DNA of 64,000 nucleotides, taken from positions 138,114 to 202,113 of the forward strand of contig NW_021832228.1 of NCBI RefSeq assembly GCF_006345805.1, written 5' to 3'. This DNA is from Octopus sinensis (Eukaryota). Positions 4,461 to 56,486 of the stretch are shown here, in pieces. The position numbers and the translations under genes are program-made. The notes beneath the pieces were generated by a model, which saw only the letters and a program-made list of their open reading frames with translations, was not told where the DNA came from and searched no databases. Within the stretch, counting starts at the first letter, position 1. Each line of letters begins with the position of its first letter.

Positions 4461-5700
4461 AGTAGTGAGAGTAGTGTTGGATTCCTCAGTTCTGGGATGT
4501 TCAAAATTGGGGAATTGGTTCAAATCGAGTACAATTTAGTGTTTCATTGGTAGACCGCAGGTTGTGGGGGTTATAACTCGACTGGAACGTCAAAACTTTG
4601 TGATTCTTAATTAGTTCGAAAAGGTGGATTTTCAGAGGTGATTTTAGATTGTTAAGAAAAAGAACAATTCGATAACAGTGAGGAAAGTGAGTGCCAATGC
4701 AGTGACTTTTTACTCGGATAACCAGGCAATAACAGTGGCCAGTTCGGTCAAAGTCATCAAAGGGCCTTTGGAAGTAAGTATATTACGTAATCAGTAGAAT
4801 GAGACGGGAACAGTTACAACAGTTACATGTATATACAAGAATTATGTGTTTGTCAAGTCATCCAGTCTGCAACATAATTCTGGGTTATTTGTGGTGGTTA
4901 GACGGAATCTGCGTCGATTGGATGGTAGTGAGTGTTAGTCGGGGGTTGGACAGTGAGGCACGGAGGAATGCAGTCGAGGGTAAACTGGGTGGTTTTGGGT
5001 CTCCATTCCCGATGGCTTCGCCAATGCACTACGCCACCGCATCTACCAAAGTAGGGTCTTAGAGGAATGTGAGGGATCGTCGTCTTATCGGGAATGCCGT
5101 CATGATCATTAAAGGACCACTGAAAGGGAATATTGGTATCATTAAGGACGCGAGTGAAAAGACTGCACAAGTTGAGCTTCACTGTAGTTGTCGTACCATC
5201 AATGTGGATCGTGGCAATTTAATGGCCATTCGTGCTGCTAATGATAACTCCTATGATTTGTCCACACAAGAAGGCAAAACGTTGTCGATTACTCCCACTG
5301 TGAGCAATATTCCTGTCCCTGTGGGGGGAAGGACTCCTTTATATCCGCAGACCCCGTCCTACCCCGAGATTCCGGCATATCCGCAGACACCATCTTACCC
5401 ACAAACACCGATGATAGAGACAGAGGGAGGAGCAACCCCTCATCATTTGATGGAGGAGGGCATGTCTAATTCGTATTGGCTGTGTATGTTAATTTGTAGA
5501 GTTCAGTCGAGTCCTGCTACATTTGGGAGAATTAATTGGCAGTCCCCATTGGATACTCCATGTTTGTGTTTTGTAATATTGTTGTAGCTCATCTACTATT
5601 TGCTCAAGACTTTGACACCTTATTCTACTGTGTCGGTCTCGTGGTGGCTGCTTCCACCAATAAGTCGTTCATTGATTGCGTGATTCGCCGCCATTAAATT
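4461..5700 (+). pseudogene. SUPT5H: 3' half of transcription elongation factor Spt5 (KOW domains and CTR repeats)
   Basis: SESSVGFLSSGMFKIGELVQIEPQVVGVITRLER, VKVIKGPL, ASPMH, LIGNAVMIIKGPLKGNIGIIKDASEKTAQVELHCSCRTINVDR and GGRTPLYPQTPSYP repeats. There is an in-frame TAG near 4612, short introns, and no NGN domain. Confidence 0.92.
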
Positions 5701-15686: not shown

Positions 15687-17834
15687 CAGTGTTTCTCAAC
15701 CTTTTTTTCCCTGAGGCCCATTTTCAGGGTCATATAAAATCTCAGGCCCATTGCCTTTAATAAAACTTTGATTAACAAAAAAGTATTTTTATTAACATAA
15801 AAAATCTTATTAAAATGTCAATGACTACACTGCTCTTGATGTCTATCTATCAATTTGTCAAGTTGAATTTCCAGATCTTGGTTCAACCTCAAACGTAAGT
15901 CTCCTCTCTTCTCAATCTGCAATTGATTGCGTTTTTTTGTGAGTAAATCGTTTGTTGCAGAAAATCCTATCTCAACCAACCAAGTGGTGGGAAAGCCAAG
16001 TACAAACGGAACAACTTTTTCAAAGAGTAATGGATGAATCGATTCTACTTTCATCCATCCATATAAGCCATCCCTTTCAATATTTTTCATTAATACTTTG
16101 TTCTCCTTCAGTTCAAGAAGTTCTCCAGCAATAATAGGATCAATGTCTTTTTCACTTAATACGTCAAAATGTGCTATATCTATAATCCAACTAGGCGGAT
16201 TCATTTCGATGATATCTTTAAATCTTCTAGTCATATCTTCTTTCAAGCATTTCAAGTGGTCAGTGCAGCTTGCGATTACTTCTGAGCTCGGAGCAGTTTT
16301 GGCAAAATTACAAAAATAAGCAAATTCATTTTTTTGAAGATGCATCTTCCAGAGACATAACTTGTTCAAAAAAGAGCGTACTTTCTCAGCACTATCTATC
16401 AGATTAGCATTTCGCCCTTGCAGTGTCATGTTCAGTTGGTTGACATGTGCGAATAAGTCAGCCAGGTAAAAAATCCTTGCTTTTGTATCGTTGTTATTTA
16501 TCACTGAAAACAAAGTCTCAGCTTTATCTTTCTGCTTCTTGCTACAAGCTTGTGTTTTCATGTCATGAACAAAAATAAGAACCATATCCCACATTTCAGC
16601 AAGACGAACTAGGGAATTTCCTTTGGAAAGCCATCTCACTTCAGTGTGCATGAGGAGTCTCTGGTGGTCCTCATGTTCACATAAATGTTGAAATAGGCGG
16701 TCATGCAAAGCATTGGCTTTGACAAAATTCACTGTTGAAACAGCGACTTTCAATGCATGTTCCATGTCATCATTGAGAGATTTAGCACAAAGATGTTCTC
16801 GATGGATGATGCAATGAATTGCCAATATATGAGGGGCAACTTTTTTTAATTTAGCTACAAAGCCATTCTGTTTGCCGGTCATAGCGCTGGCACCGTCTGT
16901 TGCAATCTGCAACAGATTTGACAGAGGGATCCCATTATCGTACAGATAGTCGTAAACAGCCGCATATATAGTGTCGCTTCGTGTGTCAATCAACTTTTTT
17001 ATAAATAACATTTCTTCATGAATTGCCATTGCATCAATATATCGGACATAAGTAAGTAATAAGGCAGAATTGTTGATTGTTGTCTCATGTCTCACACAAG
17101 CTGTTTCTCGAGGTTTTCTGCCATTTCAATTTGCCTTCTCTTCACTGTGTCATTAGACAATGGGATTTTTTGTAGAATGTTGGCAGCCTGTTCTCCTAGC
17201 AGTTCTTTAGCACAGATCAACATTGCTGGCTTCACCAGACGTTCTGCAATTGTATGTGGCTTCCCCACCTTAGCAACCAGTTCACTCACTGCATAACTGA
17301 CTTTTAGTGTCTTGTTATTATGCTCATTTGCTTTTTTTAAGCAGAATTCTAAAGTTTTTGGAGCATTCTTTTGGCGTAACTCCACTTTCTTCCTGAAATA
17401 GCTGCGCTCCTTTCCAACAGAAGCAGGATGCTTCAACTGTTGATGGGCGAACAATTTTGATTTCTTCATGGAAACATTTGTCATTACTAAGCCACAGTCC
17501 ACACATTCAGGCCTCTTAGAATCAGCACTTGATGGGATGAAGCCTAGTAATAAAAAATCAGTCTGGTATTTGCGTGTAGTCTTCCTTTTTTCCTTGTGTA
17601 CTTTTGACATGAACTATACAATCAGGCCTATAATATTTAAATTTAAATATGACAATATCATTAAATTAAAAACAAATCAAATCAATTTGAAAATAATAAC
17701 GAATAAAGATTTATTAGTATTAGTATTAACATATTTTCTTTGAGGCCCACTCCAGGCCCAATTAAATCTTCAGGCCCATTTCAAAATTTCTCAGGCCCAC
17801 AAGTGGGCCTGGGGCCCAACGTTGAGAAACACTG
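15687..17834 (-). mobile_element. hAT (Buster/Charlie-type) transposon, near full length
   Basis: TIR CAGTGTTTCTCAAC; 8-bp TSD ATTTAGGA (nnnTAnnn) at 15679-15686 and 17835-17842; subterminal AGGCCCA repeats. Confidence 0.97.
15818..17610 (-). pseudogene. hAT transposase split by a frameshifting lesion at about 17095
   Basis: BED-like CVDC..H..KH, IPLSNDTV, TDGASAM, HCIIHREHL, HTEVRWLSKG and FPTTWLVEIGFS; the F.LQLD segment before ETT is absent. Confidence 0.92.
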
Positions 17835-19660: not shown

Positions 19661-20383
19661 TGTCGCATGCACAACGCGCACTACGCCCCGAGCGCACATT
19701 ATCGATTAGTCATATTGTAATTTTTATAAATTTTTTCGAAATTATTGAATATAATGACACAAATGGCACTTTAAAAATATTATAATATATTTATTAATTT
19801 GTTAATATCTTTTTTTCATCAAATTTTAATTAAATATTACGCACGCTATATACTATGGATTGTTCACGTTTGGTTTTCCAAAACAAAAGAAGTTATATAA
19901 GAAATGTGACCGGTTGAATACGAGCCCAGGTTGATTAGGGTCAGGGTTAGGGGTTTGGGTTAGGGTCAGGGGTTAGCGTCAGTTTTAGGGTCAGGGATTA
20001 GGGTTAGGGTCTGTTTTCTTTAGTGGCTTTTTATGATGAATATGTTTATAAATAACGTTGAAATCATTTATAGTTAGAGTTAAAGTTAAGGTTAGAGTTA
20101 AAGTTGTTACAAACTTGCCAAAAAATTTGATGTAAATTATAATTTGCTAATGTTGCAATTTATAATATCAAAAATAAAAATAATTCACATTATAATTTGC
20201 TAATGTTGTAAATAATTTTACTATTTTAAAGCAAACATGGTTCAAATATAAAACATCATTTTTTCAAAAATTTAAAGTTCAATCATTAGTTCGGAACGTT
20301 TGCCTTTATTTTAATTGGCCTTTTGAATTATTAGCGAATCAATAATGTGCGCTCAGGGCGTAGGGCGCGTTGTGCATGTGACA
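19661..20383. mobile_element. Non-autonomous Ginger-type MITE containing a telomere-like array
   Basis: 47-bp TIR TGTC(G/A)CATGCACAACGCGC... with 4 mismatches; 5-bp TSD TAATA at 19656-19660 and 20384-20388. Removing it restores the hAT reading frame. Confidence 0.92.
19935..20009 (+). repeat. Degenerate interstitial (TTAGGG)n-like array
   Basis: TTAGGG/TCAGGG/TTTGGG units; a more degenerate GTTAGA/GTTAAA/GTTAAG run follows at about 20073-20105. Confidence 0.9.
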
Positions 20384-28880: not shown

Positions 28881-29562
28881 TGTCACCGTCTTGAAGGGAC
28901 CCCCAGGGTTGAACGGAAAATTAAGAATTAAAAAGGCAAAAGTAAATGGCAGGCATAAATTATATGTAAAAAATAGTATTTTAATTATTTTTATAATAAT
29001 TCTAATGTTTAATTTATTATTTTAGAATGGCTTGTCTAAAATTTTATTTTTACATATCAAATTATGACATGCAATGCGACATTGTGACCTTACTCATGAG
29101 GGTTAGGGGTAGGGTAGGGTTAGGGTAGGGTTAGGGGCAGGATTAGGGGCAGGATTAGGGGCAGGATTAGGGCTAGGTTTAGGGTAGGGTTAGGGTCAGG
29201 ATTAGGGTTAGGTTTAGGGTAGGGTTAGGATTAGGGTTAGGCAACATCTATGAAGTGGTGGAAATGGGTATAAGTGGGTTTACGATTGGTTACTTTACTT
29301 TGTTTTTAACTATATATAATTGGCTTTGTAAATTGTAATGACATTCATTTGAAATATTTATTATATTATTTATAATTAGTCTATTTATTTTTCTGAAATT
29401 AAGGCAGTACTAATGTAATCATAATTTTACTAATATAGAAATATTTTGAGGTCATGCAAGTATCTCTGGAATCCTCTTTTGGGTATTTCAATTATTAAGT
29501 GTATGAAATATCTAATTAGGGTAGGGTCCCTTCAAACTTGGGGTCGTTCGATGCCTGTGACA
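28881..29562. mobile_element. Second Ginger-type MITE containing a telomere-like array
   Basis: Termini TGTCAC..GTGACA with an inverted TTGAAGGGACCC motif; 5-bp TSD ATAAA at 28876-28880 and 29563-29567. Confidence 0.85.
29100..29241 (+). repeat. Degenerate interstitial (TTAGGG)n-like array, about 140 bp
   Basis: TTAGGG, TAGGG and TTAGGGGCAGGA units. Confidence 0.95.
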
Positions 29563-31201: not shown

Positions 31202-32090
31202 TTACTCAAAAATCGGATAGTATATTTTAATGCCTATTCCTGCTGCGTTTTCATGCTCTCTTGATAATCTTGAATATCCACTCTCCCCCACCATGAAGTC
31301 CCCCAACTATTAGACTGGAAGAATATTTAGTACCTCTTTTTGATCAGCCAATATTTTAGTGTATTTTCAACTCCATAACCAACTAAAAGTGCCAAATGTA
31401 TCATATTCTTTGGATCGTATTTATTAATTTTTAATATTCTTGCGGAGTTTTAAAAATATTACCTTTTGTATAGAACATAAAAGCAAATGAAGTGGGATCT
31501 AAATTGACAGTCACTGGGCCAATTTCTGTAACTATTTTTTAAAGTTGGTAATTTGTTAAATTTTTCATGCTAACGTATCCTTTGTCTTTCAATCTTAATT
31601 TGTTATAGTGAAATCTACACTTGACTGTCTACAAACGTATTAAACAAACCGAACCCTCCCCTCATAAGGATACTCTTCTTGAGTGTCGAGACCTCCAACT
31701 GTAAGAATATATTGAATAATGTTTTCAAACATTCCCCCCAGCAGCCGAAATTTTTAAACGGGAATGTGCAGTCGATAACATTTTGTTCACTGAAAGCAAC
31801 CAGCTTGTTAAACTTTAATGCATATTGGCTTTCTAAACTCGCAACCTAAAAATAAACTAAACCGTCCCAAAAGCATAACAAGATCCGCATTTAAATTGGT
31901 CCCTAACAGGAGTTACTACATTTTGTTGAGTCCAATTTAAATATTCAGGAAGATCGTAAATATTGTCCAATTTATCAAAAACGAAATTTTGAGAATTATT
32001 TTGAATAAATTTATAGTCAGATGAGTTTTGTATCTTGATTAGAATTCTCAATGATAGAGAAAAATTATTTAGCCAAATTAATATTACATT
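31202..32090 (-). pseudogene. Cathepsin L-like (papain C1A) protease, 5'-truncated
   Basis: VTPVRDQFKCGSCYAF, FSEQNVIDC, GCWGG, YPYEG, HLALLVGYG, YWLIK and NSWG; in-frame TAA near 31541; short introns. Confidence 0.92.
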
Positions 32091-32099
32091 CTAAAAAAG

Positions 32100-35000
32100 T
32101 TTTGCACGTTGTTGCTGTTGTTGTTCATTTCATTCTCTCTTTCAATTTTTTGTTCTTTGTTTTCTTTCTCTTTTCACTTCTTTTCAATCTTTTTTCGTTC
32201 TATCTAACCCACTCTCTTTCATCTCATTCTTTCTTTCCTATCTCATCTTACTTTATATCTCTCTATCCCCATGTCATTTTGTTTTTCTTGTAAATCTGTT
32301 AATTCTCGCAAAACTGGTCGCTCCTGCGCCTCTTGCAGTCAGTTTTTCCACCTCTCGTGTGTTAAACTCACTAAACGTGATTCGGCGTCAATCCTTTCTT
32401 GGAAGTGCCCCTCATGCCTCCCACACACGTGGATCCCTAAGCCTTCTCCCCACCCGGCGCCCATCCCGCCTGACAAGTTTCTGTCGCTTCTTTCCGAATC
32501 CCGAAGCCTCCGCGTAATCCCTGCAAGAATTCCCAAATCTGCGCGAATCTGCGTTGCTGATACGCTATCCGACATAATCGATCAGTCCCTTAAAAGCAAT
32601 CTTCCAGAAACTTGGTGCAAACTATTTTCGTTTCCTTCTGTTTGTCTGGGAGCTGCCCCTCGTAAAACGGAGTCAGTAAATAGGACATCGGCCGCTCAGC
32701 AGATTAAAGACCGCTGCAGTTCGTTCATAAAGGCACCCTTCGACTTATCATGGATCACGCCAGATCGCCCCTCGACCGCGAAATCTCGCGGGCCTCTTAA
32801 ACAAGACGAAGGGGTACGCTTAGCCCGGTCAGTTAACAGCAAACTAATGCAGGGAGATGTCTCTGCTGCTGTTCATTTTATTTCATCCACGGCATCCATT
32901 GCCCCGCATACTGATTCCGTTCTGAATTCACTCCAGTTGAAACATCCTCCCGCTCCACCTGATATCCGTGAACCCCCTCACATAGCCAAAACCGAACGAA
33001 TTGTTTCCTCCAGTGACGTGTTAGCCTGCCTTGGATCATTTCCACCGAGCAGTAGCGGGGGAGTAGATGGCCTAAAGCCGATACACCTAAAGGATCTTGT
33101 CGCGCCCATGACAGGGGAATCTGGTGCACGCCTCCTGTCCTCGATTGCATCCTTGTGCAGCAGAATTGTCTCTGGAAATATCCCATCTTTTGCACGCGAT
33201 TTACTGTTCTCGGCCAAACTGACGGCACTTAATAAAAGTGATGGGGGCATCAGACCCATCGCTGTGGGAAACACATTCAGGAGTCTCTCTGCAAAAATTA
33301 TCCTCAGTGTTGTCCTCCCTGATTTGAGCTCTCAGCTGCTGCCACATCAGTTCGGTGTCGGTGTTCGCGGTGCTTGTGAGGCTTCTGCCCATGGGGTGAG
33401 GGAGTTGGTCATCAATGGCAATCCAAAAATCCCATATCTTGTTAAGCTGGACGTGCGCAACGCTTTTAACAGTGTTCGCAGAGACCACATCCTGGAAGTT
33501 GTGCACACCCGCTGCCCGGCACTCTACCCAATTGTCCATCTATCTTATGCGCGTTCCTCGAATCTCCTTTTTGGAAAAAATCTGTTGTCCTCAGCGTCTG
33601 GGGTTCAGCAAGGGGACCCATTGGGACCTCTCCTATTTGCCCTCGCAGTGGACCTTATTGCTCAAAGGCTTTTGTGCCCGTTAAATTTCTGGTATCTCGA
33701 CGATGTCACCTTAGGTGGCTCGCTTGAAAATATTCATAACGACGTTGCTGATATTATTTCGGGTTTTAGCCAAATTGGCTTATCCCTTAATGGCTCCAAG
33801 TCGGAATTTACCCTGCTTTCCCTCGATCATTCTTTATTTTATCCTGCCTTCACGTCCCTGTCCGAGAAAGTTGTCGGTCTCTCTGCGACAGACCCGGACG
33901 ATCTGGTCATCCTTGGTTCACCAATCTCTGGTCGAGGTATTTCCGCCGCCATTGAGCGTAAAAAACGCCAGCTGGCTCAAACACTGGAGCGTATCTCCCA
34001 ACTGGGCGCACATGTCGGGCTATTCCTTATAAAGAATTACCTATTCATCCCCCGCCTAACCTACCTATTCCCTCGTCTCCATGCTTTCGGGAACCAGACC
34101 TCTTGTCCGACCTGGACTCCGTAATCTGGAAGTCAGTTGGGAAGCTTCTTAATGTTGACTTTGGCGGGGACCTACTTACCCGCGCAATGTTACCCCTCCG
34201 TTTCGGAGGCATCGGTATCCGCTCGTGCAAAGACATTTCTATCCCATGCTACCTATCTTCGCTCTCGGTATCAAGAAATTTTGTCAGTTCTGTTCTTTTT
34301 CGCTCCCCTGAACGTTTTGAACTGACTGAATTTTCTTCTGCCCTCGCTGCCTGGACCGCCTCAGGTCTTTCCTTCCCCGTGGAGGATCACTTGCAGAGGA
34401 GTTGGGACTCCATCCGCTGCAAAGAAGTGGTAAAGTCCCTTAAAGGAAGCGCCGATCAAGTTAAACTCGCATCGTTGAATGCAGCCTGTCACCCGCATTC
34501 TGGAGACTGGTTGAAAGCCATCCCTCTGTCCACCGCTGGTCTCCTCTTGGATGATGAATCGACTCGAATCGGGACCTGTCTTCGTCTGGGAATTCCCCTT
34601 TGCCACCCTCACCGGTGCAAGTGCGGCCACATGATTGGCCCCGATGGTCTCCACCCCCTTTCGTGCCGCTTAAGCACCGGGCGTATCCCGAGACACGCTG
34701 GCCTGAACCACGTCGTCAAACAGGCCCTCAATGCCGCAGGCTTCCTTTCTGTTCTGGAGCCTGCCGGCCTCGACCGTGGCGACGGCAAGCGTCCAGACGG
34801 AATGACAGTCTTTCCATTCTCGGAGGGGAAATGTCTCGTTTGGGACGTTACCTGCGCGGACACCTTTGCCCCCGGGACCGTTGCTCAGTCTGCGTCCTCC
34901 CCCGGCTTCGCTTCCCGTCGGGCTGAGGAGACGAAGCGGAAGAAATACGCCTCTCTCTCACCAAATTACCACTTTGTCCCGATTGCTGTGGAGACAAGTG

Positions 35001-35240
35001 GGGTGATAGGGACGGGCGGAGTATCGTTTTGTCCGAAATTAGGAAGCGCATCAACAAGGGCACGAAGGACCACCGCGAAATCAGCTGGCTGTACCAGAGG
35101 ATATCGATCGCAATCTTGCGAGGTAACCCGCTTGCAATCCGAGGTGCAGCCACTGCTGACTCTTAATTAGCTATTTTGGTTAAGTTTTTTTTCGATTGAT
35201 TATTTCCATTAAAATTTACAACTATTATTAAAAAATTAAT
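32100..35240 (+). mobile_element. Near full-length CRE-clade non-LTR retrotransposon (PHD finger, RT, zinc knuckle, RLE)
   Basis: Pyrimidine-rich 5' UTR, single ORF and AT-rich 3' end; exact ends and TSD not identified. Confidence 0.93.
32271..35166 (+). CDS. CRE polyprotein with two 1-bp frameshifts (about 34071 and 35028)
   Basis: PHD CFSC..CASC..FHLSC..WKCPSC; RT GGIRPIAVG, KLDVRNAFNS, GVQQGDPLGPLLF and WYLDD; CKC..H..SC; RLE RH..LN, KRPDG..VWDVT, KRKKY and FVPIAVETSG. The corrected frame ends QRISIAILRGN..ADS*. Confidence 0.9.
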
Positions 35241-36179: not shown

Positions 36180-37080
36180 ATGATTGTATGCATTGAATTG
36201 AATATAATGCTTTCAATGAATGAATTCTCTGAAAAATTATTAGAACGTTACGGTTCACATTTGTCAACCGAAAACATACGTTAACATATACACAGTATGC
36301 TTTACAAAGTGACACTGTCGAATGGAAGTTTAGAGAGTCAATTGTCCAGAGATTAAATTACAAAGAGCTGAATTTGGGAGAGCATGGGAGCGGGAGCTTT
36401 GTGCTCGTTCAATTGCAGCCAAAAGATCGTGACAACGATCAGATGGGGAGATTGTTGAGGGTCTTTTAGTTACTGTAATCACAGCATCCAAACAACACCA
36501 CGTGAAGGTGACCCACATCGTCGAACCGGGTCCAGCTTGCTCAGATTCGCACGGGACATCATCCACTGATTTTCGAAACATACCGTTCCTTCACCCCCGA
36601 AGACCTCTTCCCCTGTCCTGGACCGCCTCACTTGTCTCCGCCTATTGGGATTCGGGATCTCTGGGAGCGCCCGATCTTCGCGTCTCGCTACCTGATTGCA
36701 GCCGGCTTCCTACGTGTTAGTGAAGCCGGGGTAACATAACTAACTAACTAATTTGGGAGAAAACTTCTTGAATATCAAGGAGAGTTGCAAACAATATTGT
36801 TTGCTGATAAAAGAAATTTCAGCTTGCATATTCGTCGTTCAAAATAATTAATTATTCAAAAGGTTGGTCAAAAGTTGGATCACGTGCATCGTCAATTCAG
36901 CGACTTCAAAAGGTCCAAATATCCATGTAATTGGAGCTATTTCAGTGCATGGGCTTATCCATTATGAAATACAAAGAGTCTCTTTTAAGTCTGATGGTGC
37001 AAAAGAGTTTTCGGGAACTGTCTTCGCAAAGCTTATGAAATAAACAACTCCGAGGCCGTAGTTATAATTGACAATGCTAT
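36180..37080 (+). mobile_element. IS630/Tc1-like transposase remnant, interrupted
   Basis: LSMNEFSEKLLERYG.HLSTENIR, SKGPNIHVIGAISVHGLIHYEI and VVIIDNA. Confidence 0.7.
36470..36750 (+). mobile_element. 5'-truncated I-group LINE 3' end with (TAAC)n tail
   Basis: RVQLAQIRTGHHPL and DLWERP..SRYL; tail TAACATAACTAACTAACTA. Confidence 0.7.
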
Positions 37081-37099
37081 TCAGGATTGGAAGAAATCC

Positions 37100-37880
37100 T
37101 TGGTGAAGAAGACCACAATGCATCGAATTCTTCGATTGGCGACATATACTCCTATGGTCAATCTGTTATTACTATATGCAGACGATTTTATCGTCGCATC
37201 AAGGGATGTGAGCATAATAAAAGCAACGGATAGAATACAGGATAACCTCAACAATCTGAGTTCATGGCTATATAAAAACGAACTGGATGCAAGTCCGGAA
37301 AAATCTATTTTGTCTCTGTTTACGAAAAACAGAAGACTTGGGAAAGTCTCAATTGAAGCGAAGTTAGACGGGGAAATTATACCGCAGAGCAAAACCCAGA
37401 AGATTCTTGGTGTTACATTCGACACCTTTCTAACCTTCTCAACCCACGTCGAAAATTTAGTTATGGCGGGTGCAAGAAAGATTAACTTCCTGAATGCCTT
37501 CCTGAAGAACGCAGGAGAATGCAAAGGCCTATATGGCCTAAACAACATATATAATCAATACTTGGAACCTACGATCGGCTATGCGTGCGGAATCTGGGGA
37601 ACAAACTTAAGTGCAAACAATCAATCAAAAATCGACAAAATTCGGTTGAAAGCGGCAAACCTGCTAAACATTTTCTCCGATAAAGAGATTATCCCAAAAG
37701 CCTGGAACAACAGAGAGGTTCGTCCTGAAAATCCCCGTCCGTACCGAAAATGCGTCGGGACAACGGCGGAACATCGGGAGAGGCTGCGCGAACTGCTGAG
37801 GGAGGCTGGGATCACCTGAATTCTTCTTTCTTTTGGCTATGACGGTGGTTTTCTGGTTCAATAAATATAAAATAAATAAA
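37100..37880 (+). mobile_element. I-group LINE RT C-terminal fragment
   Basis: LLYADDFIV, SPEKS, KILGVTFDTFLTFSTHV and YLEPTIGYACGIWG. Confidence 0.9.
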
Positions 37881-42001: not shown

Positions 42002-43430
42002 CAGTGGTTCTCAACGGTGGGCGATTCGCCCCCTAGGGGCGATTTTTCTGCCAAGGGGGCGATGGCTGATTGCTAATATTTGAAAAATTAAAATCTTATG
42101 TTAGAAGTCGATAATCTTTGAAAAAATAAAGATTTTTTCTAGAATTAAAAAAGAATTTTGAAAATAAAAACACCTTACCGTCAATCTTTAATAAAAATAT
42201 ATCTCAAAATGTCTCTGGATTATCTTATTCATATAAAGTTGCAGAGATATCTTGATAGATAGGATAGTATTGGGTTCGATGAAGTTAGTATATTGGGAGA
42301 TTGATCATGGGAACTATCAAACAATGTGGGTGTGTCGTGGAGTGAGGCAGCTGCCAGGCAAGAGTTACAGTGCCATATTGGGATGCTGGAAGCGGATTTC
42401 TTCGAAATCTTGAGACATCCAATATGGAAGTAAGCATGGCAGTTGGCGCAGTAAATGCCGTTTTTGCGGCAGTTAATTTTACTGCATTTACCACATGGTA
42501 ATGCATTTACCACATCGTGGAAAAGGGATGACATGTAAAAATAGGAAAGAAGTATTAAGAAAGATAACAGAAATACCGACGAAAGTATTAAATTATACAA
42601 AAAATTTGAAAAATAACAAATAAATGAAAAATGTACACCACTTTTTATAAAGATATTTCGATGATGATTCTATTTTGCAAGAAGAGTTATTATTTGCAAA
42701 ATCTTTAGTCACGGATACTACAGGATTGTCAATATTAAATGTTTGAATCTTATTTATTCTTAAATGATATTCCATTTGAACATATTTTATCGTGCGCAAC
42801 TGATGGCGCAATGGCTATGGTTGGAAAATATCGTGGTTTTTTAGCTTTTCTAAAACAAAAATCTCCAATGTCTACTTCAATTCATTGTATTTTACATCGG
42901 CATCATTTAATTGCAAAAAAATTATCTGAAGAATTGAATGCATCAATGCAAATTGTTATCAAAGTTATCAATAAAATTAAAAGAAACAGCAAGTACGATC
43001 GTATTTTTCGTGAATACTGCACTAACCAAAATGAAGATTATGTTAGGTTACTTTTACATACCGAAGTAAGATGGTTATCTAAGGGAAATTGTCTTGAAAG
43101 ATTTGTGATATTATTTGATGCAATTGTTGATTTTTTAAGATTACAAGAAGAATTTAAATTGTTTAATTCCTGCAAAATTCATAGAAAAAATATTTTTTAT
43201 TTAAATTGGATTTTAAAAAATTAAAAAAGAGGCGACATTAGAATTACACTAACGAAAAGAAGTACAAATTTTGAAAAACTTGTCAATCTTCATCAACCAC
43301 AAGGATCTCATTAAAACTCTTATTTTTTAAATAAAAATTTTTACTAATGAAATAAGGGGGCGATATAAAAATTGGAGGGGCGAAAAAAATTCCAAGGGGG
43401 CGATACAAAAATAAAGGTTGAGAACCACTG
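42002..43430 (+). mobile_element. Internally deleted hAT (Buster-type) element
   Basis: TIR CAGTGGTTCTCAAC; TSD GTCTAGTG at 41994-42001 and 43431-43438; subterminal GGGGCGA repeats; TDGAMAM, HCILHRHHL and HTEVRWLSKG. Confidence 0.95.
42229..42600 (-). mobile_element. CRE 5' fragment with PHD finger, inside the hAT
   Basis: CGKC..RKNGIYCANCHAYFHIGCLKISKKSASSIPIWHCNSC aligns with the N-terminus of the 32271 ORF. Confidence 0.8.
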
Positions 43431-43899: not shown

Positions 43900-45020
43900 T
43901 GTCTAGGAATAGTTTAGGCCCAAGTTTACGAGATTTTTCGTAATCTCAGGTCGAAAGTTTTCCCAATCAATGGGCCAACCTTAAAGCTTATTACACGTAA
44001 AATTATGTATAGAAATTCAAATCATAATTTCACTGCTTCTAATGGATGGCTTTACAGATTCAAGATACTATTCGAATTAAAATTCAGAATATTACATGGC
44101 GAATCACGATCAACCAATAAAGGAGGTGAGAAAACATCCGATCAACTTTCAATGATTTTCTTGAAAAACTATGGGGGAAAAAACATTTTCAACTGTGATG
44201 AAACTCCATTATTTTATAAAGCTGTTTCCAAAAAGAGGTTTGTTAAAAGCAATGAGTCACACAACGGACATAAAATAAGAAAAGAACGTATGAAACTTCT
44301 TTTGTGTTGCAGTTACACAGGAGAAAAATATAAACCGCTTATAATTGGGAGTATTAAAAAGTGTGAATCTGAAAGAAATTGGCATTAAATATGATGCTTC
44401 GATTTAACGAGGAAATGAGGGAGAAAAGAAGGAAAATAGCATCGTTAATTGACAATGCAACTTTCATACGTCGACGTAATTTTTTTTCCAAAAAATACAA
44501 GTTCCTTAATTCAGCCAGGTAACCAATTGGATTCTATTTCATGTTCGAAATTGGCATGGGACGAGATTACAATACAACATTGCTTTGAAAAAGCTTTGGA
44601 ATATGACTGTCGGGAAAAAGAGGACATCGGAGAAAGTCTGATTAATCCCGATATTGTGGAAAATGCGATTTTGAAGAGTTTCTGGGATGATAACAGTAGT
44701 AATAAAGAGGACTGCAGCGAACAATTTCTGGAACATTTGGATGATCAACAAGTTATAAACAATGTGGAATGCGCATTCACAATGCTACTAAATGTTATTA
44801 AGCAAGAGACTCCGGAAAATGTACTTGATCTATTCAGATTCAAAGCAAATATTATGAGTTCGATACGAAAAAAAACAGTCGATTAAAATTAACTGATTTT
44901 TTATTAAAAATTTTAGTTATCCGTTATATTATTAACGTAGGATATCGAACAGGAGAGACCTAAATTTAATGAAAAACCTCAAAAATTGGGGAAAAATTTT
45001 CCCAATTCGAGGTCGCACTG
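43900..45020 (+). mobile_element. pogo/Tigger-like element remnant
   Basis: PINGPTLK, FTASNGWLYRFK, IFNCDETPLFYK, KERMKLLLCC and FFPKNTSSLIQP; terminus GAGGTCGCACTG then TA. Confidence 0.88.
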
Positions 45021-55427: not shown

Positions 55428-56486
55428 ATGAGTGATCCAATTCTTGACTTCAAGAATGGTAGGTTTTATTGTCCATGGCTTGGTTTCTCTGATGTCAGCC
55501 TTTTTCAACGTTTAAATACTATTTGACTTACTGTGACTCCGTGAATGAAACCAAAATAAATGTTTTTGGTCAATTCTAGGAATTGGAAAATACTGTTTTC
55601 TGTGTATCACCAGAAAAGAGACCTGTTCGCTCTAAAAAAGAGACCGTGGATATCTCACAGCTATCTTCTAGTCCAAATGGACAATCTAAATATCCTTACC
55701 GATCCCATTGTATCGGACATTGTGCTGTGCAAGTACATTTTTCTACCGAGGGTGAATCAAAATGCCATATCCATCCCCGAATTGCCCGAGATTGATTATG
55801 TGCTAATCTCTCACAGCCACCACGACCACTTAGACTACCCTGCTTTTACACAACTACACCAAAGATTTCCAAAAATTAAATTTCTAGTCCCTCTCAATGT
55901 CAAAGCATTAATCCTGTCCGTTGCGCGGCTCAAGTTGAGGAGTTTGGATGGTGGGACCAAGTCCAGTTAAGTAATCAAGTCACTGTGGCACTCGTACCTG
56001 CTCAACACGGAAGTAGAAGATCTCTTTTTGACGAAAACAAAGTTTGAGGTCGATATGATAGTAAGACACTCTGAGGAGGGTGGTGTTTGGTGGGAACAAG
56101 TAATGTTGGAACATTTTACTAATCTGGAGACACTGGATACTATCAGCCAATCTTTAAAACCATTGGCATGAAATATGGGCCCTTCGACGTTGCTGCACTC
56201 CCAATTGGTGCGTACGCTCCAAAATTCTTATTCAAATACCAACATGCTGACCCCAGGGAGTGCATTCTTATTCAACAAGATGTTCAAGCTAAACACTGCA
56301 TTGGAGTTCATTGGGGGACTTTTCGGCTGGGATATGAGGTTGTGTGACAATTAATTGTAGGGAATCTTTGAGTCTCGCCACGTTCTTAATAAAGAGAAGG
56401 AATCATTCGAGCTGGGAGAAGCCACGTTTAAGTGCATTCGGGCTGGACAAACTATAAACAGAAATGGATCAATTATTGTTTTTTAA
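55428..56486 (+). pseudogene. NAPEPLD: N-acyl-phosphatidylethanolamine phospholipase D (metallo-beta-lactamase fold)
   Basis: ILTDP, VLISHSHHDHLD, PAQH, SGDTGY, GPFDVAALPIGAYAP, QHADP and GVHWGTF. There are frameshifts, a TGA at the conserved LWG Trp, and one donor reading AT. Confidence 0.92.

Follow-up and report, generated by a model that had tools for sequence, protein, structure and literature searches.

A CRE-like retrotransposon with an N-terminal PHD finger, a candidate low-specificity DNA grip, on a scaffold of the Octopus sinensis assembly

The sequence analyzed here is a 64,000-nt stretch (the window) of contig NW_021832228.1 in the Octopus sinensis assembly GCF_006345805.1 (forward strand, positions 138,114–202,113). 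At 32104–35206, on the plus strand, it carries a frameshifted copy of a CRE-like non-LTR retrotransposon (an element lacking long terminal repeats) with one open reading frame (ORF). The 5' untranslated region (UTR; 32104–32270) is pyrimidine-rich and begins with a CACGTTG/(GTT)n motif. The ORF starts with ATG at 32271 and encodes a PHD finger at residues 4–49 (32280–32417), with all eight Cys4-His-Cys3 ligands, a Trp preceding the last CxxC, Arg-Lys in loop 1 and a net charge of +7. In the predicted model, a low-confidence linker (residues 53–61) connects the finger to a helical N-terminal extension (residues 66–125; 32466–32645). The reverse transcriptase (RT) core is at 33231–33830, with YLDD at 33693–33704; Pfam RVT_1 matches residues 321–520 of a 617-aa piece with 52.4 bits. 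A 1-bp deletion at 34071–34072 shifts the frame in the thumb/linker. The second frame contains a CCHC knuckle (34616–34666) and the restriction-like endonuclease (RLE) motifs RHxxL, KRPDG, WDVT and E..K..KY. Knuckle and RLE extend to the stop codon (34616–35166); a further 1-bp deletion follows 35026, and the final 32 codons are read in the third frame, with TAA at 35164–35166. The short 3' tail (35167–35206) is that of one subfamily and is common to 5 of 29 3' ends.

The two deletions are confirmed by comparison with other copies. The base after 34071, absent here, is present in all 9 copies that span the site, and the base at 35026–35029 is present in 22 of 23, the exception having a nearby deletion. 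With the two lost bases, the 2,896 nt of 32271–35166 encode 965 aa. The sequence-only reading had counted exactly two 1-bp deletions and about 965 aa, and both counts hold. In run X1, the contig has the extra base at the site of the first deletion, and at that of the second it has loose ends; such collapsed contigs represent the state of the family, not that of the window copy. The two closest copies are rich in private deletions of 1–2 bp (8 over 2.5 kb in L118, at 98.6% identity, and 14 in L129), which are typical of long-read error. The two deletions of the window element may thus be read errors as well, and the element may be unbroken in the organism itself. None of the fetched full-length copies of the same family (L032, L033, L036, L037 and L129) has a single open frame from PHD to RLE.

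The N-terminal domain is, by predicted fold and by ligands, a true PHD finger. Residues 1–60 alone match Pfam PHD (PF00628) with 27.7 bits (E 2.7e-6), above the curated cut-off of 24 bits; within the 617-aa piece the score is 22.1 bits. Inside whole proteins, 6 of 7 ORFs from the assembly (G000) score 17–22.5 bits, and the seventh matches only PHD_2, below its cut-off. The finger is predicted with a pLDDT of 80–91. Its top Foldseek match is the PHD of AL3 (5yc3), with an rmsd of 1.2 Å over 49 columns, and the closest structural neighbors are the AL1/AL3, BPTF, PHF8 and Cfp1 readers (rmsd 1.2–1.6 Å to PHD structures). The eight ligands, the Trp ahead of the last CxxC and Arg13 do not vary in any of the 15 aligned families, and a short helix at residues 35–40 is conserved. 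The pN/pS of the finger is 0.27–0.39 in 6 of 6 family pairs, with synonymous sites near saturation; judged by these ratios, the finger is under purifying selection. The scores for PF00628 (27.7 bits) and RVT_1 (52.4 bits), together with the fold, bear out the Cys4-His-Cys3 finger described from the letters. An RT with RLE is likewise supported, by RVT_1, the RLE motifs and the R2-like fold of a relative, and its CRE-like character is suggested by a match by eye to Cre-1_BM (both described below).

The finger belongs to a large family. A finger search of G000 gives at least 150 matches (150 of 465 candidates scored), 149 of them on small scaffolds and one on the chromosome-scale C2. Complete PHD-RT-CCHC-RLE frames of 962–994 aa are seen in 10 of 40 fetched stretches, which were picked partly for long frames; two of the ten were judged by length and motif positions. 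The model of one intact relative, L052, has a mean pLDDT of 93 and a pTM of 0.87. Its top seven Foldseek matches are all R2 proteins (E 1.4e-24 to 1.2e-18), and the highest scores in VIA-align are for L1 ORF2p (Z 26.5) and R2 (Z 23.7). The structural alignments start at residue 75 for L1 ORF2p and at residues 100–176 for the R2 proteins, so the finger appears to hang by its low-confidence linker (residues 53–60 in L052) before the usual N-terminal extension. In the model, no Myb-like unit separates the finger from the helical extension. As for the suggestion that the element is possibly active, the ten open relatives speak for the lineage, while the window copy itself is broken as assembled and apparently chimeric.

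Relatives outside the assembly differ in this slot. Among the best 120 of 466 homologs, a full PHD is seen in 14, a partial PHD in 3, a C2H2/C2HC finger in 47, and no finger or a truncated start in 56. A profile built on the first 150 residues matches 184 clusters at E <=1e-10 among 1.84 billion representatives, and 2 among 7,995 scored in a search for longer proteins. The maximum-likelihood tree of the RT alone (57 rows, after 23 rows without a recognizable finger were dropped from 80) separates 23 PHD rows from 34 zinc-finger rows by one branch with support 97/93. The 80-row FastTree agrees, and six N-terminally truncated rows fall inside its PHD side. Both trees are midpoint-rooted, sampled with a bias towards the query and built without named reference elements. 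The simplest reading of this phylogeny is one swap of a single C2H2/C2HC zinc finger for a PHD in this slot.

Other domains are also attached to these proteins. A USP deubiquitinase (PF00443) lies C-terminal to the RLE in P0011, P0021, P0138, P0196 and P0305 (195–221 bits in four, 47 in P0138), and its Cys and His boxes are visible in P0011 and P0021. Further USP-type relatives are P0015, P0023, P0102 and P0301–P0304. Most USP relatives also have a PHD, and they are metagenome-derived. In P0009 the PHD is preceded by a nuclear-receptor-type C4 finger, P0011 has two PHDs, and P0054 has an OTU protease with C2H2 fingers.

The insertion sites share no common sequence. Apart from three pairs that are nearly identical and two short matches, the 29 3' flanks from the window's family show no relation to one another, and they are 69% AT, compared with 64% in the window. 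Strings of at least 11 nt are shared across the junctions in 7 of 14 full-length elements versus 2 of 182 mismatched pairs (the 14 are those with a defined 5' end, 9 of 23 without one being left out); the same test within the window's family gives 4 of 20 versus 4 of 380. The target-site duplications (TSDs) are 11–15 nt, the A-tails are short, and many copies are 5'-truncated. Judged from these flanks, target-primed reverse transcription (TPRT) puts the family into AT-rich DNA at scattered places and not at a fixed site. A comparison of 20 loci of the window's family and 20 of other families with Rfam gives no match. The unrelated flanks and the lack of an Rfam match in these 40 loci rule out targeting of rRNA, tRNA, snRNA or telomeres. 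TTAGGG-like arrays in the window are at least 3 kb from the element; they are degenerate and interstitial (19935–20010 and 29099–29241). A fixed site in spliced-leader RNA genes is likewise unsupported by the 40 loci, where an undescribed gene of this kind would escape Rfam but give shared flanks.

There are often 10–32 extra bases between the 5' CACGTTG motif and the target duplication. These vary, and no spliced-leader sequence is seen at the 5' junctions. The motif of 32104–32125, CACGTTG followed by GTT/GGT repeats, is also found at the 5' ends of L049, L052, L058, L059, L061, L062, L063 and L129. The proteins of the families that have it are only 33–56% alike. The motif could be a candidate internal promoter. 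Downstream of the stop codon, same-family copies (window 35167–35206 and L076–L105) have several differing short 3' tails, which suggests read-through from different source copies.

The window copy itself has no TSD matching its 5' and 3' flanks. Its 5' junction (32088–32104) and the 3' junction of L118 correspond to the two halves of one empty site, seen in L179 and L180, and the empty-site homology stops at 32088. The 3' flank of the window element is another repeat. Since its 5' junction pairs with the 3' junction of L118 and its own 3' flank is different, the window copy is likely a chimera, made by assembly or by recombination. A reciprocal exchange with L118 can be ruled out: the upstream flank of L118 is unlike the repeat behind the window copy.

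What does the finger do at such scattered sites? It is probably, though by no means certainly, a low-specificity DNA grip used during TPRT. By analogy with the biochemistry of R2, the element protein would bind its own RNA, the RLE would nick AT-rich DNA, and the RT would copy the RNA from the nick. The flexibly tethered finger would touch DNA, either free or nucleosomal, via the conserved RK motif. A DNA-contacting PHD would then stand in for the usual zinc finger and permit insertion at many sites.

The residues and charge of the finger are consistent with such a role. PHDs that read H3K4me3 depend on an aromatic cage, in which a Trp is invariant, and in many cases on an acidic Arg2 pocket as well; those that read unmodified H3K4 need an acidic cluster preceding Cys1 (PMC3241642). 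The window finger has Phe at the place of the cage Trp, Ala after Cys3, and Gly-Arg replacing Met-Ile, and only Met-Ser-Phe lies upstream of Cys1. The cage Trp and the Arg2-pocket Asp of H3K4me3 readers are thus absent from it, as is the acidic cluster of unmodified-H3K4 readers. Among 25 distinct element fingers of G000, the cage Trp is seen in none and the Asp in 1, an acidic residue lies within 6 residues ahead of Cys1 in 8, and all 25 are net positive, with a median charge of +6. Among 102 fingers from protein collections, 101 are net positive (median +5); Arg/Lys is found six residues before Cys3 in 89 and Lys/Arg five before in 92, although these fingers were collected with a profile made from the G000 elements, which favors RK-like matches. 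The cellular PHDs of the same assembly have a median charge of −1, with 4 positive among 13, a small control left from 16 by taking out three element-type rows.

There are precedents for a PHD of this kind. The PHD of BAZ1A, without cage or acidic residues, recognized nothing on a histone peptide array and does bind DNA (PMC5636791). The cross-brace finger of piggyBac and the PHDs of BRPF1/2 and PHF6 are also described as DNA-binding (PMC5861402).

Several points weigh against a DNA grip, among them the RK-favoring profile and the small, partly basic cellular control mentioned above. Cage Trp is present in 18, Asp in 16 and an acidic residue within 6 positions before Cys1 in 64 of the 102 outside fingers, and the three element-type fingers taken out of the G000 control also have the Asp. 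The top structural neighbors of the finger are H3K4me readers. Two basic residues did not make the PHDs of BAZ1B or dAcf1 bind DNA, and the lysines of the BAZ1A PHD are in its C-terminal half, not in loop 1 (PMC5636791). The basic loops could instead serve as a nuclear localization signal (NLS), an RNA contact or an acidic-patch anchor.

The last of these possibilities is that the finger contacts an acidic surface of the nucleosome, such as the acidic patch of H2A-H2B, or of a host protein, and tethers the element to chromatin without reading a mark. The contact would be made by the RK motif or else by the conserved helix that separates ligands 6 and 7. Arginine anchors bind the nucleosome acidic patch, and the invariance of Arg13 in 15 of 15 families, the conserved helix at residues 35–40 and the flexible linkage of the finger would all fit. 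Nevertheless, the finger occupies the slot of a DNA-binding-type zinc finger, and acidic-surface tethering seems unlikely. A wider version can be speculated: a widespread and as yet undescribed RLE clade took a chromatin-reader PHD, reversed its charge and made it a nucleosome-contacting targeting head that supplants the zinc finger, and one branch added a C-terminal USP. This scenario is rather improbable too; if true, the USP branch would be a retrotransposon that attaches to chromatin and alters the ubiquitin marks where it lands.

Alternatively, the finger might bind the element's own RNA or mainly give nuclear import, with no part in target choice. These are single-ORF elements without an ORF1 RNA chaperone. 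The PHF6 PHD binds both RNA and DNA, the piggyBac finger overlaps an NLS (PMC5861402), and the N-terminal fingers of R2 can anchor RNA (PMC13580325). A plain NLS, however, needs neither eight conserved ligands nor purifying selection over the whole finger. We consider a role confined to RNA or import doubtful.

Reading of a histone tail, either the H3K4 state or another mark, would steer insertion by chromatin state. The true PHD fold, nearest to the AL1/AL3, BPTF, PHF8 and Cfp1 readers, and the lack of any sequence target are in its favor. In the likely host, the N-terminus of H3 is canonical and a cellular PHD (L150) has the Met/Trp cage, a related subclade bears the USP deubiquitinase, and the same idea has been proposed for the PHDs of L2/CR1 (PMC4120745). 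On the other hand, the G000 fingers lack the cage Trp (0 of 25) and nearly always the Asp (1 of 25), and the window finger leaves no space for an acidic cluster and would meet a basic tail with a net charge of +7. Because the reader residues are missing and the finger is strongly basic, histone-mark reading is disfavored and appears quite improbable, and from the sequence one would expect the PHD-RLE lineage not to read histone marks. The sequence-only reading had proposed guidance by chromatin rather than by sequence. The unrelated flanks agree with the absence of a sequence target; its histone-tail part does not fit the missing residues and the charge. Finally, that the finger is a functionless passenger or a chance cysteine pattern, as its scores below the Pfam cut-off in whole proteins (17–22.5 bits in 6 of 7 G000 ORFs, the seventh PHD_2 only) might suggest, is scarcely credible and already largely refuted by ligands invariant in 15 of 15 families, pN/pS of 0.27–0.39 and retention over one deep clade.

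The small scaffolds, including the one with the window, likely belong to a co-assembled organism and not to the octopus host. Five small-scaffold copies of a Spt5-like fragment (window 4540–5590) are 97–100% identical to it, compared with 61% for the copy on C24, and its candidate introns, read from DNA alone, are about 23–26 nt. An 18S gene of 1,667 nt is found on C1618, versus genes of roughly 2,600 nt on the chromosomes. A second, divergent type of H3 is present on element-bearing scaffolds. The GC content of the window is 36.3%. Proteins related to that of the element are listed under Octopus sinensis. Dicyema japonicum, which lives in Octopus sinensis, has a genome with 36.7% GC, introns of 38 bp on average and 49% repeats (PMC6736024). 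By comparison with these published genome statistics, a dicyemid parasite is likely the host of the PHD element. For annotation, this means that the element and its scaffold are likely the parasite's, assembled together with the octopus. The C1618 18S gene (L206) has histone-fold matches on both sides and is followed by no 5.8S match at the Rfam threshold.

The octopus chromosomes contain an old, decayed family of the same lineage. Its full-length copy at L047:1871–4600 (G000:C2) has relatives of 67–86% identity on many chromosomes (40 of 697 candidates scored). A parasite-to-host horizontal transfer is unsupported: the copy on the host chromosome is about 30–34% identical to both G000 and outside proteins.

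The window contains a second PHD at 42358–42495, inside a fragment at 42246–42641 on the minus strand. This is a 5' fragment of a sister family, with UTR, PHD and part of the linker, and it is 95.7% identical to L064 over 396 bp. Its protein shows 37% identity to the window N-terminus, the ligands are intact, and Pfam PHD scores 24.0 bits. It sits within a high-copy repeat unrelated to it: both sides match this one repeat, whose other copies have some 300 bp of different sequence in place of the fragment. It appears from this structure to be a one-off fragment rather than a diverged full copy. The "diverged copy" read earlier from the letters at 42229–42600 must therefore be given up, whereas its retained ligands and the finger as a lineage trait are upheld. 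A non-autonomous family represented by this 42.2-kb stub was considered and rejected, as its junctions have no second copy (40 of 136 candidates scored).

Other mobile-element remnants are at 15818–17613, 36995–37819, 42739–43224 and 43918–44886; they include hAT-like transposases (by eye), another LINE RT and a Tc5/Tigger-type transposase. Window 55560–56350 contains what we take, from its motifs, to be a NAPE-PLD-like gene, with an apparent 1-bp frameshift near 55930 (an assembly error or a pseudogene).

PHDs in LINEs are already known, and Penelope-like, Gypsy and Rehavkus elements have likewise been described as carrying them (PMC8557442, PMC9940879). Their combination with an RLE appears unreported as far as the literature was searched: outside Repbase and Dfam, the paper of Kapitonov and Jurka 2003 and a 2025 survey of site-specific retrotransposons, no published report linking a PHD with the CRE clade or with a restriction-like endonuclease was found, the looser searches being judged by title or abstract. 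A term look-up in PMC4640811, PMC5678591, PMC7650587, PMC12477816 and PMC13580325 returned no mention of a PHD domain. Engineering of RLE retrotransposon proteins for gene insertion is under way, and where they land is determined by their N-terminal modules. A compact lineage of about 965 aa with a zinc finger exchanged for a PHD shows that the N-terminal slot is modular, and offers a small testable domain. The old idea of LINE insertion guided by a PHD via chromatin becomes directly testable.

Among known systems, the DNA-binding PHD and cross-brace fingers (BAZ1A, BRPF1/2 PHD2, PHF6 and the piggyBac CRD) resemble the window finger in a PHD-type fold without cage or acidic residues and in a basic surface. 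Their basic residues are placed otherwise, and their DNA binding is demonstrated, while that of the retrotransposon finger is predicted. The L2 (subgroup 4) and CR1 (subgroup 6) lineages include PHD-bearing LINEs, among them single-ORF forms with an N-terminal PHD, and genome targeting was proposed for them (PMC4120745). They share with the window element an N-terminal PHD on a single LINE ORF, but they belong to the Jockey superfamily and use an apurinic endonuclease, whereas the window element uses an RLE.

The R2 proteins 9nl3, 8gh6, 9dou and 9nl2 are the top Foldseek matches of the L052 model and share the RT-linker-RLE order. R2 targets 28S rDNA via a zinc finger and Myb; the window lineage is without a Myb-like unit, and no rDNA target is seen for it. 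In the RT and linker rows of an alignment (supplementary file 6, PMC5678591), compared by eye, the window RT is much nearer to Cre-1_BM (LINE_CRE-II) than to CRE1, CZAR or Cre-1_HM. The motifs shared with Cre-1_BM, GG.DGL.P.H.KDL, DGGIRPIAVG, Q.GVG...G.CEA, QQGDPLGP and WYLDD.TLGG, extend along the whole RT core. The lepidopteran relatives in the tree (P0047, named Tuta absoluta, and P0043) have a C2H2 finger and no PHD. The trypanosomatid CRE clade (SLACS, CZAR, CRE1 and CRE2) has a single insertion position, within the spliced-leader RNA genes, and bears one or two zinc-finger-like motifs (PMC12278014). It resembles the window lineage in its single ORF, RT, RLE, A-tail, variable target duplications and N-terminal zinc-binding motif (PMC12278014). 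The window lineage differs from it in being scattered over many sites and in having a PHD in the zinc-finger slot.

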